Shown here: piece by piece, positions 27,940-46,505 of the stretch | Layout of the letters: each line of letters opens with the position of its first letter | Position numbering within the stretch: the stretch's first letter is position 1 | Assembly (NCBI GenBank): GCA_038102935.1 | Contig: JAYNYG010000001.1 | Location: forward strand, 35,096 to 99,095 | Source: Alphaproteobacteria bacterium | GTDB lineage: Bacteria; Pseudomonadota; Alphaproteobacteria; Bin95 | Length of the DNA stretch: 64,000 nt | Direction: 5' to 3' | The notes under the pieces: generated by a model | Database searches by the model: none | Told to the model about the DNA's origin: nothing | The model's input: the letters and a program-made list of their open reading frames with translations, nothing else | Made by a program: the position numbers and the translations under genes

Positions 27940-29115
27940 TCAATCCTCGTCCACGAAACTACGTAGCCTGTCGGTCGCTTTCAGGTATTCCTCCATGAAC
28001 TGGCGGACGACATCGCGCGTGCTCGTCGTCTCGTTCATTAACCCAACGCCTTGGCCGACAAAATATGAGGCGAGCCGGGTAGCGCCGTCATGGCCGCCTT
28101 CCGCCAGCTTGTTGATCCGCTGCATGGTCGGCTCAACGATGATTGACTGGAACGGCATGGGGAGTGGGGCAGGGGCGTCCGGCCCCTCCCATGCGTCCGT
28201 CCAGGCGGAGCGCAGTTGGCGGGAGAATTTGCCCGTGCGGGCCTTTGATCGCACTGTATCGCGCGAGGACGCTTGCAGCATTTTCTCTTTCACGGCGGGC
28301 GAAGTCTCGGCCTCTGTCGTTGTCAGCCAGACAGAGCCGGTCCAGGCGCCGTCTGCGCCCATGGCCATGCAGGCCGCCATCTGTTCGCCGGTGACAATGC
28401 CGCCTGCCGCCAGGATCACTGCATCGCTAATTGGGCGGACAGCGCGCACCACTTCCGGGACCAGCACCAGCGTTGAGACATCGCCGCAATGTCCGCCAGC
28501 CTCGCCGCCGGAAACGATGATAATATCCACGCCCGCCTCAACCTGCCGGATCGCATGTTCCCGCGCGCCGACGAGGGCCGCGACAGGTACACCATGCGCA
28601 CGCGCGCGCTCGATCATATAGGCAGGCGGCGGGCCAAGCGCATTGGCGATCAGGCTGATGGGATGGCTGAAAGCGACATCCAGCAGCGCCTGAGCACCCT
28701 CATGCTGAATGCTTTGGCTCATCCGCGCGCCGCGGGAAATGAGGTTGTCCTCAATCTGCTCTGACGGAATGTCGTGGTCCTCAAGCAGGTCGCGCACGAA
28801 GTTTCGGTGTTCCTGGGGCACACGGGACACAGCATCATCGCGGGACATGCTCGTCGCTTGCCCGCTGGCTTTCGCCTCATGACGCGCGGGTACAATCAGG
28901 TCAACGCCGTAAGGCTTGCCGTCGATATTCGCATCAATCCAGTCGAGCTCGCCCTGCAACGTCTCTGGCCGCATCGCGACGGCGCCCAACACGCCCATGC
29001 CGCCAGCCTTCGATACCTCCGCCACCACGTCGCGGCAGTGCGAGAAGGCGATCAACGGGAAGTCGATGCCAAGCATGTCGCAGATTTTTGATCGCATGTG
29101 GAGAGCCTCCATCAA
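27940..29115 (-). CDS. nitronate monooxygenase (NMO, FMN-dependent 2-nitropropane dioxygenase family)
   Basis: NMO pattern LGIDFPLI…GGMGVLG…; TIM-barrel FMN-binding Gly-rich C-region (GGIVTGEQMAA). Confidence 0.8.
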   Translation of the reverse strand: MMEALHMRSKICDMLGIDFPLIAFSHCRDVVAEVSKAGGMGVLGAVAMRPETLQGELDWIDANIDGKPYGVDLIVPARHEAKASGQATSMSRDDAVSRVPQEHRNFVRDLLEDHDIPSEQIEDNLISRGARMSQSIQHEGAQALLDVAFSHPISLIANALGPPPAYMIERARAHGVPVAALVGAREHAIRQVEAGVDIIIVSGGEAGGHCGDVSTLVLVPEVVRAVRPISDAVILAAGGIVTGEQMAACMAMGADGAWTGSVWLTTTEAETSPAVKEKMLQASSRDTVRSKARTGKFSRQLRSAWTDAWEGPDAPAPLPMPFQSIIVEPTMQRINKLAEGGHDGATRLASYFVGQGVGLMNETTSTRDVVRQFMEEYLKATDRLRSFVDED

Positions 29116-29193
29116 ATCGCCGGGTTTTCAGCAGTTTGACGCGACAAGGTCGATCTGTCCAAGCGGTTGGACTCTGGACAGCTTAGTTTATTA

Positions 29194-30108
29194 CTAGGAC
29201 GCTTCGTAGGACTGAAGGATAAGTGGCTTGGCCGCTTCAAAATCTTCTGAAGATTTGATGGTGACCTCTAAATCTCCGGTTCCGAAGTGCCCAATCGTCC
29301 TAACATCGCGGGTGAAGCCATCAATCTTCTGGTTTTCAGCTAAGTTCTGATAGTTCAATTTCAGAAATAATTTCAATATTCCGATTTGGGGTTTTATTTC
29401 GACGCAGGCGAAATTCTTGATGCGCTTGAAAGCAAAGTAAAAGCGAAGTGTCTTGGAGGTGACGTCATCGCCGAGGCTAAGCAAATATATCTCAATCTCT
29501 GAATAAAGTGCTTGAAGCGCTTCATTTGCATCCGCCAGGCTCTCGGAATTGGTTTTGTAATGCGCAGAGCGGGTAGGCGCATTCTTGTTGGCTGTCGCCC
29601 GCGTCTCCGTGGATACCGCCGTTAAGAGGTCGAGCATCAGCAAGTCTTCGCCAAAGCGGCGGTAGCGGATGAGTTCAATATTCCGGCTCATTTGCTTGAC
29701 AGCATGCTCGTCATATCGTGTGAAATCTGCTGCAATACAGATGAGGCGCGGCGCGCTCCATTCGATGCCTTCCGCCGCCTTTGCGCCAAATGCGTTCAGC
29801 ACCAATAGTTCGAAATCGCCCCGGTGGTCCATCAACCAATCAAGGTAGAACAAGCCTTGATTTATAATGTTTTCGCTCCGATCTCGCTTGTATTCGATGA
29901 TAACGGGATAGCCGTTCTCATCTATGCCTAAGGTATCCATGCGCCCGCCATTGGACGTTGAATACTCTGAGGCTAGAAACCGGACGCCAAGAAGGGCGTC
30001 CAGATTCTGCTCGAACACAGTTTGCAGTGATCTCTCAAGCGGAGCGGCTGAGCTTGCTAATTCAAGCACATCGCCGCCGGCTTGCCGGAACAATTTGATG
30101 TCGCTCAT
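29194..30108 (-). CDS. PD-(D/E)xK (NucS/DUF91-like) nuclease-fold N-domain + DUF5655-like C-domain protein, lower-GC insert
   Basis: 304 aa; putative PD-(D/E)xK core MDTLGIDENGYPVIIEYKRD. Local GC is visibly lower (about 48-50%) than flanking genes. Confidence 0.5.
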   Translation of the reverse strand: MSDIKLFRQAGGDVLELASSAAPLERSLQTVFEQNLDALLGVRFLASEYSTSNGGRMDTLGIDENGYPVIIEYKRDRSENIINQGLFYLDWLMDHRGDFELLVLNAFGAKAAEGIEWSAPRLICIAADFTRYDEHAVKQMSRNIELIRYRRFGEDLLMLDLLTAVSTETRATANKNAPTRSAHYKTNSESLADANEALQALYSEIEIYLLSLGDDVTSKTLRFYFAFKRIKNFACVEIKPQIGILKLFLKLNYQNLAENQKIDGFTRDVRTIGHFGTGDLEVTIKSSEDFEAAKPLILQSYEAS

Positions 30109-30144
30109 ACGGGCGCCGTCACACTGCTATCTCTGAACAGAACC

Positions 30145-42089: not shown

Positions 42090-43199
42090 ATGGCCATTCG
42101 GACCGCACTCTGTGATCTACTGGGCATCGAACACCCGATCCTGCTTGCTGGCATGGGGGTCTGGGGCATGGCGACGCCGCCGGGGCTGGTCGCAGCTGTT
42201 TCCGAGGCTGGCGGCCTAGGTGTATTGGGGTGCTCGGGGTTGAGCCCGGAAGAAATACGCCAACGCGTCAAAGCCGTCCGAGCGTTGACGGATAAGCCCT
42301 TCGGCGTGGACCTGCTGCTGCCCGCAACGCTGGCCCCAGCCGCCACGACGCGCAGCGGCGTCAGGGCTGAGCTTGATCAGAAATTCCCGGAACACGTCGC
42401 CTTTTATCGCGGCTTGCTGGACCGGTTTGCACTTGCCGAGACGCCAGTCCAAGACGATATCGTCATCTCGTCCGAATTCATTGAGGCCCAAATCGCTGTC
42501 ACGCTGGAAGAGAAAGTACCGGTATTCGCCGCTGGCCTGGGCGATCCAGGTCGTGTGACGGGCCGGGCGAAAGCGCAGGGCATGGTGACGCTTGGCCTCG
42601 CTGGCTCCCCCAGAAACGCGGCCCGGCAGGTTGAAGCAGGAGTAGACGCCGTTGTGGCGCAAGGAACGGAAGCGGGCGGGCACACGGGCCGCGTCGCCAA
42701 TTTCGCACTTTTGCCGCAAGTGGTGGATGCCGTCGGCGCAACGCCGGTGATCGCGGCGGGCGGTATTTCAGATGGGCGCGGGATCGCGGCGGCGCTGGCT
42801 TTCGGCGCATCCGGCGCATGGCTCGGCTCATTGTTCCTGACGGCGGACGAAAGCGACATGCCAGACGCCTGCAAGGATGAGCTTATCCAGGCCCGCTCCA
42901 CTGACATGGACGTCACTCGCGCCTGGACCGGCAAAACACTCCGCGCCCGCAAGAACGAAGTATCCGAAGCCTGGGCGACCAGTGGCCTCGACCCTCTGCC
43001 GACCCCGCATCAACGCGTACTAATGGAAGATTTCCTGGAGGCGGTTAAGTCCGCCAAACGCTGGGACCTCTTCATGAACGCCGCCGGCCAAGGCATCGGC
43101 ATGGTCTCCAAACGCAAACCAGCGGCAGAGATCATGGCGGACCTGATTGCGGGTACGGAACAGGCGATCGCCCAGCTGATGGCGCGGACGGGGAGGTAG
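42090..43199 (+). CDS. nitronate monooxygenase (NMO) family, second paralog
   Basis: LGIEHPILLAGMG…GGLGVLG… NMO pattern; 369 aa. Confidence 0.8.
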   Translation: MAIRTALCDLLGIEHPILLAGMGVWGMATPPGLVAAVSEAGGLGVLGCSGLSPEEIRQRVKAVRALTDKPFGVDLLLPATLAPAATTRSGVRAELDQKFPEHVAFYRGLLDRFALAETPVQDDIVISSEFIEAQIAVTLEEKVPVFAAGLGDPGRVTGRAKAQGMVTLGLAGSPRNAARQVEAGVDAVVAQGTEAGGHTGRVANFALLPQVVDAVGATPVIAAGGISDGRGIAAALAFGASGAWLGSLFLTADESDMPDACKDELIQARSTDMDVTRAWTGKTLRARKNEVSEAWATSGLDPLPTPHQRVLMEDFLEAVKSAKRWDLFMNAAGQGIGMVSKRKPAAEIMADLIAGTEQAIAQLMARTGR

Positions 43200-43224: not shown

Positions 43225-43578
43225 TTAGTGCATGGCGAAGGCGCTGGCGGGGATGACGCCTTTGAAGGCGCGGCCTTCCGGGCGGACGGGCAGGCCGGTA
43301 TCGACGCGGATGCGGCCCTGGCGGTATTCGGCGTATTGCTCCGCCGCAAGGCGCGGGTCATAGGGGATGGCGGCGTGTTTCCATTCGAAGGCGAAGGCCG
43401 GGGCCGCAGCGTCCTCTGGCGCCTCATCCGCCAGGCGGAAGCCTTGGCCTTCGCGGTCCAGCCAAAGGCCGGCTTCCGCCATACGGGAGAGGATCGTGAC
43501 CGGCTGGCCATTGCTTTCGCCGATGACCGTGCCCGGCCGCATCAACACGCTGAAGGGCGCGCCTTCTTCCGGCGTCAC
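43225..43578 (-). CDS. hypothetical protein (possibly truncated at the island border)
   Basis: 117-aa ORF with high-GC codon usage, abutting the AT-rich island; no recognisable motif. Confidence 0.3.
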   Translation of the reverse strand: MTPEEGAPFSVLMRPGTVIGESNGQPVTILSRMAEAGLWLDREGQGFRLADEAPEDAAAPAFAFEWKHAAIPYDPRLAAEQYAEYRQGRIRVDTGLPVRPEGRAFKGVIPASAFAMH

Positions 43579-43621
43579 TGCCTTCCGGGCAGCTCAACCG
43601 CGCCCGCCATCCTTCTGGGGT

Positions 43622-44020
43622 TAATCCAATAGTACTAATAGCTTTTTTTTATCTTTATTCATTATCTCGGTAAAATCCGGCACTTCTTCGGCGCTAATTA
43701 TTCCTTCGATTACACTTATTGCGCTTCTATCGGATAGCTTTTGTTGCCCTGATTGGGTGCTGTCCTGGCCATTAAGGCCGTCCCACTCGAGGCCATATCT
43801 CGCGACGGTACGAATAAGATTGAATGTTGCATCCGACTCGGTGCCACCGTTAATCGAGATGGCCCCTTCAAACCAAGCTTTAGTGTTCTGATCTAGTCGT
43901 GGTTAAAACCTATTTGCCTTCAAAATATACTCATAAGCTTCGTGATACCCCGCTTCTCCACGGTTAGCTTGTTCAAACAACTGCTTCAGTCGACAAATTT
44001 GGTAATTTGTTAACTTCATT
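43622..44020 (-). pseudogene. degenerate ORF with in-frame TAA (MKLTNYQICRL…ANRF*PRLDQNTKAWFEG…)
   Basis: Own translation of the minus strand: ~130 codons in one frame interrupted by a single TAA; AT-rich; no Met after the stop. Confidence 0.3.
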
Positions 44021-44110
44021 TGGACCGGCATCAGTTTTCACTCTTCATGTTTCGAACGTCCAACCATGAAATAATAGTATTGTTAGCAAACTTGAATGAG
44101 TTATCCACAC

Positions 44111-44644
44111 CTATACTTGGGATAAAGGAAAATAATTATGGCCAGCAAGGTGAAATTTGCTCAAATAAAAATACCCATGGCATCGCGATCCTAAATACAA
44201 AGAGTGCTTGTGCGTGTCACATACTGCAAAATAAGCAATACCCGATTTAGACAAATCATTCACTGCTATCTCAGATAGCTCCACAGTTGCTGGCTTAAAT
44301 ATCTTTGTGCTCGTTCCACTTGCACGTGATTCATAAGGTGATCCTTTTGATACGATTCTATCGACTCGGCTCAATATCTCTGACGAATTCTTGAAATCCA
44401 TTGCATTCCATATGTCGCCGCGTTCATCCATAAACGCAACATACACAATGGAGGAAAATTTGCCCCCTTCAAGATCGGGGCATATTAATGATCGATCAGA
44501 TTCTCTAAACATACCGGCAAGAGGTTGAATGTCAGGCATCCGGAATACCGCTGCAGCCTTAGAATCACCGTATCTAAGGCCACCGGCATTAATGGGAATA
44601 TGTGGCGGAATCATATTTACGTATTTCGTTCGAAGAGGATTCAA
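44111..44644 (-). CDS. hypothetical protein within the AT-rich island
   Basis: 177-aa ORF, AT-rich codon usage unlike the host genome; no recognised domain. Confidence 0.3.
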   Translation of the reverse strand: MNPLRTKYVNMIPPHIPINAGGLRYGDSKAAAVFRMPDIQPLAGMFRESDRSLICPDLEGGKFSSIVYVAFMDERGDIWNAMDFKNSSEILSRVDRIVSKGSPYESRASGTSTKIFKPATVELSEIAVNDLSKSGIAYFAVCDTHKHSLYLGSRCHGYFYLSKFHLAGHNYFPLSQV

Positions 44645-44885
44645 ATATATAATCGGTATTGTTGCTGAGGTTTAGTCAGATAACTTCACCGTTTGCAGTA
44701 ATCCGCGATACCAAGATAGTGCAATCTGATGTTTGTTTAATTCTGAGCGCTCTATGGTTGAACAAGAATTTTCATAATCTGCATAGGCGATTGCCGACCT
44801 GCTTCCGCAGATACATAGGCATGAAAAGACCAAGCATAGGAATATATTCGTCGCGGCCCGAGCTTGCAGACAAATGCTATTCATC

Positions 44886-45240
44886 TCACCGCTCCCTCAA
44901 ACTTTCATCCGCATACCGAAGCAGCGGACTCAGGAAAAACGTTATCGTGCGACTTGCCCCCGTTTTCACTTCCGCAGCCACAGCCATACCAGGCGTCAGT
45001 GGTACCCGACGGCTATCCACCGGTATACTAGTTTCAGCCATGGAGATGCGGGCCTCATACACAAGGCCGCGTTGTTCGTCCTGGATGGCGTCCGCGGAAA
45101 CGCGGAGGACTTTGCCTTTGATGAGGCCGTAGCGGGTGAAGGGGAAGCTTTCCACCTTGATCTCTACCTCCTGACCGGCGCGGACGAACCCTGCGTCCTT
45201 GTTTTGGACGAAAGCTTCAATCTCCAGGCCGCCTTCGGCG
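44886..45240 (-). pseudogene. HlyD-family type I secretion membrane-fusion protein, C-terminal fragment only
   Basis: Translation …GGLEIEAFVQNKDAGFVRAGQEVEIKVESFPFTRYGLIKGKVLRVSADAIQDEQRGLVYEARISMAE…LSPLLRYADESLRER closely parallels the E. coli HlyD C-terminus (…VEAFPYTRYGYLVGKVKNINLDAIEDQRLGLVFNVIISIEE…LSPLEESVTESLRER). An in-frame TAG lies upstream and the N-terminal ~350 aa are absent. Confidence 0.7.
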
Positions 45241-45458
45241 GGCCAATGCTATCGTTTCCCTGGCAGCAACACCGGGTCCGCCGGGTTGACCACTGCGCCC
45301 AATGAAGAGACCTAAAGGTGTAGAACGATACCGTTGCTGAATCCCAAGTGCAACGATAGAGACTTCAAGCTCTTTTGCGTGTGCGCCTACGTCTTCCAGA
45401 CATTCAACAGTTATAATAATCTTTGTCCTAACTTTGTACGCTAACGGAGACTCACCTC

Positions 45459-46505
45459 ATGACCCTCGCCGCACAGACCTATGACATCGCTGATATGGCG
45501 ACGGCGCAGGAGTATTATCATAGTCGTGGGTGGACGGATGGGCTGCCTATCGTGCCGCCGACGGCGGAGGCCGTGCAGGCCTGTCTTGAATGGGCGATGA
45601 TGACGCCGGATCAGCTTGTGGGCGTAGAGCCCGTGCGGGAACGGGCGATTACGGCGGAGAAATTGGCGATCAATGCTGTCATGGCTGGGTGCCTGCCGAT
45701 GCACTTTCCCGTGGTCGTCGCGGCGTTCACGGCGATGCTGCAGGAGCCGTTTTTGATGCATGGGGCGACGGCCAGCACGGGCGGGTGTGCAGTGCTGATC
45801 GTCATCAACGGGCCTGTCCGCAAGGAACTCGGCATGAGTGGGCAGTTCAACGCCATCGGCTCCAGCGACCGGGCGACGTCTGTTATCGGGCGGGCGATCC
45901 GGCTGACGATGATCAACCTGATGGATGTGCGCCCCGGCCATATTGACCGATCTACGCTCGGCCATCCGGGCAAGTTCAGTTATTGCATCGCGGAGGATGA
46001 GGAAAACTCAGCGTGGCTGCCGCTCGCCGAAGAGCGGGATTGCCCGCCGGGCGCATCCTCCGTCACCGTGATGGCCGCGATGGCGCCGCGTCAGCTTATG
46101 AATGAGTGGACGACCGAGCCAGAGCAAATTCTGGATACGTTTGCTGCTGAAATCAAAGCGAATATGCGGCATTACTCGATCTGGCCTGGCAACTACGCCA
46201 TCGTCATAGCACCCCAACTTCGCACGCATTTCGAGAAGGCTGGATGGTCCAAGGCGGATGTCAGGCGCTATGTGTTTGAGAAAGCGCGTATCCTCAGGAA
46301 AGAATGGGCGGATGTCGGTAAAGCCTCCGTTGTCAAGCGGCGCGGCGATCAGGAATATGCGGCATTGCCGGATGAAGATCACCTGTTGGTCATCGCTGCT
46401 GGCGGCCCCGCCGGCGGGTTCGGCGCTGTTATCCCGCCCTGGCTTGGTCATAAAAGCCGGGCCGTCACAATCCCCATCGGCGTATGCGTCGATTGTGAAA
46501 TTTAG
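45459..46505 (+). CDS. conserved protein of unknown function, UGSC-selenoprotein-associated (paralog 1)
   Basis: 348 aa; shares GWTDGLP(I/V)VPPT, AINAVMAGCLP(M/E)(H/Y)FPVV, HG(A/S)TASTGG, GMxxxxNxxGxxNRAxxxIGRAxRL, GHPGK(F/Y)SYCIAE, AGWSKAD and C-terminal CVDCEI/CIDCD blocks with 48032..49111 and 20512..21966. Confidence 0.6.
   Translation: MTLAAQTYDIADMATAQEYYHSRGWTDGLPIVPPTAEAVQACLEWAMMTPDQLVGVEPVRERAITAEKLAINAVMAGCLPMHFPVVVAAFTAMLQEPFLMHGATASTGGCAVLIVINGPVRKELGMSGQFNAIGSSDRATSVIGRAIRLTMINLMDVRPGHIDRSTLGHPGKFSYCIAEDEENSAWLPLAEERDCPPGASSVTVMAAMAPRQLMNEWTTEPEQILDTFAAEIKANMRHYSIWPGNYAIVIAPQLRTHFEKAGWSKADVRRYVFEKARILRKEWADVGKASVVKRRGDQEYAALPDEDHLLVIAAGGPAGGFGAVIPPWLGHKSRAVTIPIGVCVDCEI

Follow-up and report, generated by a model that had tools for sequence, protein, structure and literature searches.

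The gene described here is, as judged from its sequence and surroundings, an intact and horizontally acquired copy of the candidate phage-defence family PDC-S18, standing alone between acs and an NMO-family gene. We think it probable that the protein is a DNA endonuclease that acts as an effector against mobile elements.

Location and composition of the gene

The initial annotation had described a gene of 304 aa on the minus strand of the window (the whole 64-kb stretch of DNA that was analysed), and the open reading frame was found as described, containing MDTLGIDENGYPVIIEYKRDR. Its features are listed in Table 1. The upstream neighbour is acs, which encodes an acetate--CoA ligase (1109 bits to NCBIfam NF001208, whose cutoff is 657), and the downstream neighbour encodes a flavin oxidoreductase of the NMO family (PF03060). 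The three genes share the minus strand, and the NMO gene leads an operon of NMO, acyl-CoA synthetase and thiolase-like genes.

The GC content of the gene is 0.496, compared to a mean of 0.590 for the window (standard deviation 0.032 in 900-nt windows, z = -3.0), and its GC3 is 0.58, compared to 0.61-0.74 in six neighbouring genes. It forms one of only two low-GC islands in the 64 kb: only 1.9% of the 900-nt windows have a GC content as low as this, and those away from the gene are all in an island at approximately 43.3-45.5 kb. Composition and neighbour profiles therefore bear out the description of a lower-GC gene located between a nitronate monooxygenase and acs.

The length given in Table 1 for the gap to the NMO gene assumes that NMO starts at the ATG at 29097, as in NMO homologues of 385 aa. 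The mechanically called open reading frame begins at a TTG at 29115 (391 aa), and a GGAGG sequence precedes the ATG at 29097. The ATG is probably the true start, because the homologues have 385 aa and homology to sister contigs begins at 29097.

A promoter scan upstream of the PDC-S18 gene revealed no promoter-like site. The terminator scan gave a single terminator-like site, which was inside the gene, on the wrong strand, and below the expectation from shuffling. Expression here is probably by read-through from acs. An identical protein, in the same gene order, occurs on two Logan contigs, which come from the independent sequencing runs SRR26337552 and SRR26337553.

Table 1. Features of the PDC-S18 gene and its flanks, and positions of two genes found beside it in related loci
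Feature	Position	Strand	Remarks
PDC-S18-family gene, complete	29194..30108	-	ATG start, 304 codons and TAG stop at 29194..29196; open reading frame and PADLOC match
Spacer from acs stop to gene ATG, 36 bp	30109..30144	-	Neither a promoter-like site nor homology to other loci
Spacer from gene stop to NMO start, 96 bp	29098..29193	-	Unique sequence; homology between the window and sister contigs ends at 29097
PD-(D/E)xK nuclease domain (predicted), NucS-C-like, residues ~23-162	29623..30042	-	
Putative catalytic core D58 ... E72-Y73-K74 (MDTLGIDENGYPVIIEYK)	29887..29937	-	Aligns to NucS stretch IVDVMGVDKDGNIVVLELK
Q84...Y88 helix motif (NQGLFY)	29845..29859	-	Aligns with NucS stretch SQMKRY
Interdomain linker, residues 163-184, poorly conserved, predicted disordered	29557..29622	-	pLDDT <50 at residues 164-182; consensus mostly 'x'
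DUF5655 domain, residues 185-304, YdhG/YjbR/frataxin-like alpha-beta fold (predicted)	29197..29556	-	
Most conserved C-domain motif, R267-D-V-x3-G-H-F-G-T-G-D-L-E281	29266..29310	-	Columns invariant in alignment A1
Serine resolvase in nearest relatives	L095 11516-12082; L097 5155-5721; L098 11412-11972		
Co-embedded TIR gene in related operons	L095 8921-9886; L098 8915-9877; also L004, L006, L008, L018		

Membership of the PDC-S18 family

The assignment to PDC-S18 comes from the PADLOC HMM PDLC04946, which aligns residues 1-303 of the protein with profile positions 18-322 of 365 (E = 5.5e-138). There is a further match to PDLC04945 (E = 4.3e-59), along with weaker ones to PDC-S11 and, marginally, one to Shedu SduA. 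The gene resembles the PADLOC entry in its full-length HMM match, in being a single-gene candidate, and in having relatives that are embedded in type I restriction-modification (R-M) systems. The PDC systems are 145 phage defence candidates, not yet tested, which were defined by 'guilt-by-embedding' in immune systems (Payne et al., 'New antiviral defences are genetically embedded within prokaryotic immune systems', bioRxiv 10.1101/2024.01.29.577857). The family is thus uncharacterised yet not unrecognised, because it has already been catalogued. Membership proves nothing about function, since PDC-S18 is itself a candidate family. No functional study turned up in the literature under either PDC-S18 or DUF5655, and no paper was found that mentions PDC-S18.

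There are at least 8000 close matches to the protein. The homologues form 2910 clusters at 50% identity (E<=1e-3), and nearly all are about 300 aa long and share the same two-domain architecture. Homologues with 57-72% identity are found in Alpha- and Gammaproteobacteria, Desulfobacterota, Planctomycetota, Bacteroidota and Balneolaceae, Verrucomicrobiota, and Chloroflexota. The family occurs on 40 of 72,556 plasmids, including one of Staphylococcus at 52% identity. Only 6 relatives were found in 2.9 million viral contigs, and at least one of these is on a contig shared with a bacterial genome locus; a PHROGs search gave no phage family for the protein. In one representative, P0242 (644 aa), an N-terminal HIRAN domain (PF08797, E = 5.6e-9) is fused to a unit consisting of NucS_C and DUF5655, an arrangement that fits a DNA substrate. 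Another protein, P0253, apparently has two DUF5655 stretches.

The N-terminal domain is a predicted nuclease

The structure model and the sequence place the N-terminal domain in the PD-(D/E)xK superfamily: it has a predicted restriction-endonuclease-like alpha-beta core, and it carries the conserved D...(D/E)xK motif. In a HMMER alignment to P. abyssi NucS, residues D58, E72, K74, Q84 and Y88 are opposite the D, ExK and Q...Y positions of NucS. These five residues are invariant in an alignment of 55 sequences (A1) and 98-100% conserved in 80 sequences. A restriction-endonuclease-fold core with D…EYK had been proposed for the N-terminal third, in agreement with the alignment to NucS and the near-invariance of these positions. 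The Pfam family NucS_C (PF01939) matches residues 41-97 with 23.1 bits, which is 0.9 bit under its gathering score of 24, and many close homologues have a precomputed PF01939 match. A Foldseek search with the model found EndoMS (E = 5e-5), SduA (probability 0.99), and also YdhG/DUF1801. Searches of PDB sequences, made both with the single sequence and with a family profile, gave nothing significant, with NucS at E = 0.7-0.8. The domain is most likely a metal-dependent nuclease acting on DNA.

The initial annotation had likened the domain to NucS/DUF91. This is correct as regards the shared catalytic domain, which is that of NucS/EndoMS (PDB 2vld, 5gke; PF01939 NucS_C), but the protein is not a NucS/DUF91 orthologue. 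The equivalogs NF003270 and NF002876, with cutoffs of 216 and 252, give 24.2 and 13.3 bits respectively, and only about 50-70 residues match. Because they match only the catalytic segment, at around a tenth of their cutoffs, we conclude that the protein has a domain in common with NucS without being a NucS itself. The N-terminal domain of NucS is absent, the nuclease core being preceded by about 22 low-confidence residues with no Pfam match. The window protein also differs from NucS in having a C-terminal DUF5655 domain, and in a context that is mobile or defence-related, and not a conserved repair locus.

The similarity to Shedu SduA (DUF4263; PDB 8ps4/8ps5, 8ti9) is at the level of the fold only, with a PADLOC SduA match of 13.4 bits over 56 residues (E = 0.01). 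The accessory domain of SduA is N-terminal and has a different fold, and the domain order in the window protein is reversed.

The linker and the C-terminal domain

The AlphaFold model, which was built on 55 homologues, consists of two confident domains with a disordered linker between them at residues 164-182. The second of these was already described as DUF5655-like, and Pfam DUF5655 (PF18899) indeed matches residues 191-302 with 32.5 bits, above its gathering score of 24 (E = 9.4e-8, profile positions 5-107 of 109). Its predicted fold resembles YdhG, YjbR and frataxin-like "double-wing" domains. The fold is like that of MmcQ/YjbR (PF04237/DUF419), YdhG (DUF1801) and the C-terminal 'double-wing' domain of T4 MotA, although no relationship to these was detected at the sequence level. 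DUF5655 differs from them in being mildly acidic and in having its own invariant motif, R-D-V...G-H-x-G-T-G-D-L-E, within which R267, H274, T277 and E281 are the same in all of 80 sequences. A look-alike of DEAD-box motif VI in the GHFGTG region, seen in the PDB search with E about 0.4, was judged to be due to chance.

YjbR/MmcQ domains have the MotA 'double-wing' DNA-binding fold, and in defence contexts fusions of them with nucleases and with EVE domains occur; McrB-N, a domain that reads 5mC, is distantly related to YjbR in structure (PMC7641849, PMC3424535). The net charge of the C-terminal domain is slightly negative (-3 in the window protein, with a family mean of -3.6). We have therefore stopped short of assigning it a DNA-binding role, because a net acidic domain is unusual for a dedicated DNA-binding module. 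The domain may serve as a DNA reader, as a sensor, or for interaction with other proteins. A Pfam search of the protein matched no known modified-base reader family (SRA, EVE/PUA, YTH, McrB-N, etc.). Compared with type IV restriction, a nuclease domain is present, and the C-terminal domain is YdhG/YjbR-like, with a fold only distantly related to McrB-N.

Many relatives are in or beside type I R-M operons

Genes were called in 80 genome loci and their neighbours were clustered, giving 76 other genomes with an identifiable copy. In 42 of these 76 the gene is in or beside a type I R-M operon. The neighbours include HsdS and HsdM in 34 loci each and HsdR in 35, the last belonging to two families (23 EcoEI-type and 12 HSDR_N-type); rarer neighbours are YgjP-like, RhuM, TIR, WYL, AAA_15/21 and serine recombinase genes. 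The recurrent architectures, all on one strand, are hsdR-hsdS-X-hsdM, hsdR-hsdM-hsdS-X and hsdM-hsdS-hsdR-ygjP-X, where X is the PDC-S18 gene. The coupling is close: in 15 of the 35 embedded copies there is an overlap of exactly 4 nt with the stop of the upstream hsd or YgjP gene, and in 24 of the 35 the gap is no more than 30 nt. On a RefSeq Cupriavidus plasmid the order is hsdM-hsdS-X-hsdR, again with a 4-nt overlap, and the Staphylococcus plasmid has a lone copy.

The three nearest relatives (73–75% identity) all have the arrangement hsdR-hsdS-X-(ThsB-like TIR)-hsdM, with codons that overlap or abut, which agrees with the earlier suggestion that the window gene is a fragment of a defence island. 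Our neighbour analysis independently reproduces the 'guilt-by-embedding' basis of the PDC systems. The definition of PDC-S18, namely that it is embedded in or adjacent to a defence system, applies to the family (42/76 loci and 3/3 nearest relatives) but not to the copy in the window. PrrC-type effectors embedded in hsd operons are comparable, in that PDC-S18 is likewise, in its typical setting, an additional gene lying among hsd genes of the same orientation. The likeness is one of arrangement: PrrC is an anticodon nuclease of ABC-ATPase type that acts on tRNA, whereas PDC-S18 has a predicted PD-(D/E)xK fold.

Several of these operons have other genes of note. Directly downstream of hsdR-hsdS-X-hsdM in all three nearest relatives, on the opposite strand, is a small serine resolvase/invertase (Resolvase + HTH_7, ~188 aa; Table 1), which suggests that the whole module is a mobile unit. 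In several operons a ThsB-like TIR gene (PADLOC ThsB E = 3e-123; Pfam TIR_2 + Y4lF) is located between hsdS and hsdM together with the PDC-S18 gene, and there are therefore two guest genes in one operon. The junction between the PDC-S18 stop and hsdM (L003-L028) has 74-80% DNA identity between Alpha- and Gammaproteobacteria, with 77.5% for Tateyamaria and Guyparkeria; as read from sequence, such similarity suggests that the R-M module as a whole was recently transferred between the classes. Four loci (L038, L043, L058 and L066) contain a WYL gene, hsdR, hsdM, hsdS, PDC-S18, one or two unknown genes, and an AAA_15/AAA_21 (OLD/AbiEii-like) ATPase.

The loci that have no type I system often hold type III or IIG R-M, HKD+Snf2, ABC ATPases, PDC-S05, PDC-S23, ZacB, RhuM or Fic. 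Some of them have integrases, and in rare cases the neighbours are plain housekeeping genes. In L044, L059 and L079 the genes upstream encode an HKD+Snf2 protein of ~1107 aa (PADLOC C3a139 E = 4e-126, DrmD-like), a type IIG RE-MTase of ~1375 aa (E = 7e-109), and an ABC-type ATPase. With a homologue following HKD+Snf2, IIG and ATPase genes, the family is therefore embedded in systems other than type I as well, and the count of 'solitary' copies is an upper bound.

The window copy is solitary, foreign in composition and intact

No hsd gene, methylase or other neighbour-family gene was detectable in the 64-kb window, and tblastn searches of it with HsdS, HsdM and two representatives of HsdR gave no match. 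The locus thus differs from a type I R-M system in having no hsdR, hsdM or hsdS, and the claim that the gene has no partner methylase or defence gene holds across the whole window. The position is also unusual: the gene is beside an NMO in none of 80 other genomes, and has acs within 4 kb in only one of the 80.

Its GC content is 0.113 below that of its flanks. This is among the larger deficits, and 84% of homologues are also below their own flanks. Sister contigs, in which NMO has 85-92% protein identity and 73-78% DNA identity, keep the operon of NMO, acyl-CoA synthetase and thiolase-like genes, but have different upstream genes and no PDC gene. The DNA homology of the sister contigs to the window ends at 29097 (L083/L084) or 29067 (L085), no more than 30 bp from the NMO start. 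The gene is consequently at a synteny breakpoint, since homology stops at or near the NMO start and the upstream genes differ; because the nearest sister contigs have a wholly different upstream neighbourhood, the comparison establishes the breakpoint at 29097 and nothing finer. A recent acquisition had been proposed, and a comparison with sister genomes suggested as a check. The GC deficit, the absence from sister contigs, and a position that is not conserved in 80 genomes all support it.

Flanking direct repeats had also been suggested as marks of an insertion, and this expectation failed: the only direct or inverted matches are imperfect ones of 9-18 nt, at chance level, with no target-site duplication or terminal repeat. 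Searches of the 36-bp and 96-bp flanks with blastn-short and blastx found no hsdS or hsdM remnants, and no boundary shared with the 80 other loci. There is no tRNA in the window, no integrase or transposase in the neighbourhood, and no RNA family in an Rfam scan of the window. The ends of the insertion differ from those of a mobile cassette, IS, MITE or integron cassette in that neither terminal repeats nor a target-site duplication nor a recombination site was found there.

The copy shows no sign of decay in its sequence. It departs from the consensus at 3 of 114 strongly conserved columns, and the family median is 2-2.5. Copies at loci lacking a type I system, which number 26 of 77 with the window counted (an upper bound on the truly solitary ones), are conserved as well as the embedded ones, and a neighbour-joining tree has at least 17 switches between the embedded and solitary states.

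Proposed function and alternative explanations

The reading that we favour is as follows. The N-terminal domain would be a NucS-C-like PD-(D/E)xK nuclease, with D58, E72 and K74 as putative catalytic residues assisted by Q84 and Y88, and a flexible linker would connect it to a DUF5655 domain with a YdhG/YjbR-like alpha-beta fold. The usual home of the family is inside type I R-M operons, where it is presumably co-translated with hsdS, hsdM or hsdR, and it also occurs in other defence islands. The protein would act as a restriction-like effector, a metal-dependent DNA endonuclease directed against invading DNA. The C-terminal domain may direct the nuclease to DNA, or may gate it as a sensor. 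The gene in the window would have been separated from any R-M partner, and is now between acs and the NMO/acyl-CoA operon. Several points count against this reading. The tight translational coupling to hsd genes could mean that the R-M complex is needed, in which case a lone copy might be inert; and few defence effectors would be expected to keep 57-75% identity between phyla. The net acidic charge of the C-terminal domain, the lack of a promoter-like site upstream and the NucS_C score just under its gathering score also count against it.

In the main rival explanation, the protein is a non-autonomous accessory subunit or regulator of type I R-M, for instance a PrrC-like backup effector that acts when Hsd is inhibited, or a tuner of restriction. 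For its function the window copy would then need a type I system encoded outside the window, or else it would be a functionless stranded remnant. We consider this unlikely, although several observations favour it: the exact 4-nt overlaps (15/35) and short gaps (24/35), an hsdM junction with 74-80% DNA identity across distant taxa, the embedding of all three nearest relatives, and the precedent of PrrC in EcoprrI (bioRxiv 10.1101/2024.01.29.577857). A dependent subunit is difficult to reconcile with the presence of two HsdR families and at least three operon positions, or with copies beside type III/IIG R-M and HKD+Snf2 and on plasmids with no R-M nearby. The switches between embedded and solitary states (at least 17), the conservation of the non-type-I copies (26/77), which matches that of the embedded ones, and the intactness of the window copy also argue against it. 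As the analysis covers 64 kb of this genome, a partner that acts in trans may nevertheless be encoded elsewhere. A more elaborate proposal, which we regard as doubtful, is that PDC-S18 is a fourth component of many type I R-M systems, whose C-terminal domain senses the state of Hsd or a phage anti-restriction protein and whose nuclease provides PrrC-like backup cleavage of DNA. Solitary copies would on that proposal be repeated escapes, and if it is true, their conservation would show that the module has repeatedly become an autonomous single-gene immunity nuclease.

Other functions are much less probable. There is a small chance that the gene is a selfish mobile gene (homing-endonuclease-like, an addiction or toxin nuclease, or a cassette) that targets R-M operons and occasionally other sites. 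The frequent context switches, the insertion here of a single low-GC gene with very short flanks, and the resolvases or integrases often found nearby in other loci would suit such an element. It is contradicted by flanking repeats no more than expected by chance, by the lack of any boundary common to the 80 other loci, by a neighbourhood with no tRNA, integrase, transposase or adjacent antitoxin-like open reading frame, and by the rarity of relatives in viral contigs (6 of 2.9 million) and in PHROGs, where it has no family. We give a slightly smaller chance to a housekeeping DNA-repair endonuclease, a NucS/EndoMS-like nuclease for mismatches or branched DNA. NucS/EndoMS provides the best structure and sequence matches to the N-terminal domain, and its catalytic residues are kept; HIRAN, which is fused to the unit in one relative, is a DNA-damage- and fork-associated domain. 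Against this, the NCBIfam NucS equivalogs reach only 24 and 13 bits of 216 and 252, in the catalytic segment only, and the DNA-binding/dimerisation domain at the N-terminus of NucS is missing, with DUF5655 in place of its C-terminal tail. The patchy cross-phylum distribution, the foreign GC content, the absence of the gene from sister contigs, and contexts comprising R-M, defence islands and plasmids are also not those of a repair gene. Finally, a spurious open reading frame or a decaying, functionless pseudogene might be suspected from the housekeeping context without partners and from the lack of a promoter-like site. This is very improbable, given the full-length alignment with thousands of homologues, the retention of all invariant residues with only 3/114 deviations, and the identical protein in two independent sequencing runs.

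Significance and other features of the window

The family is very large, shows unusually strong conservation between phyla, and is closely integrated into type I R-M operons. The gene described here brings no new principle beyond the PADLOC candidate list and Pfam, and its value is as a data point, together with the structural reading of the two domains. Solitary copies in a housekeeping context are a minority of those sampled, and an intact one is a handy minimal construct for asking if the protein works alone.

The second low-GC island in the window, at 43300-45500, is deeper, with GC falling to 0.40 in 900-nt windows compared to the mean of 0.59. It comes directly after a second NMO-family paralogue (42090..43199, PF03060 E = 4.5e-64). 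Its only sizeable open reading frame, at 44111..44644 on the minus strand, encodes 177 aa with no Pfam or NCBIfam match. The island may be another foreign insertion.
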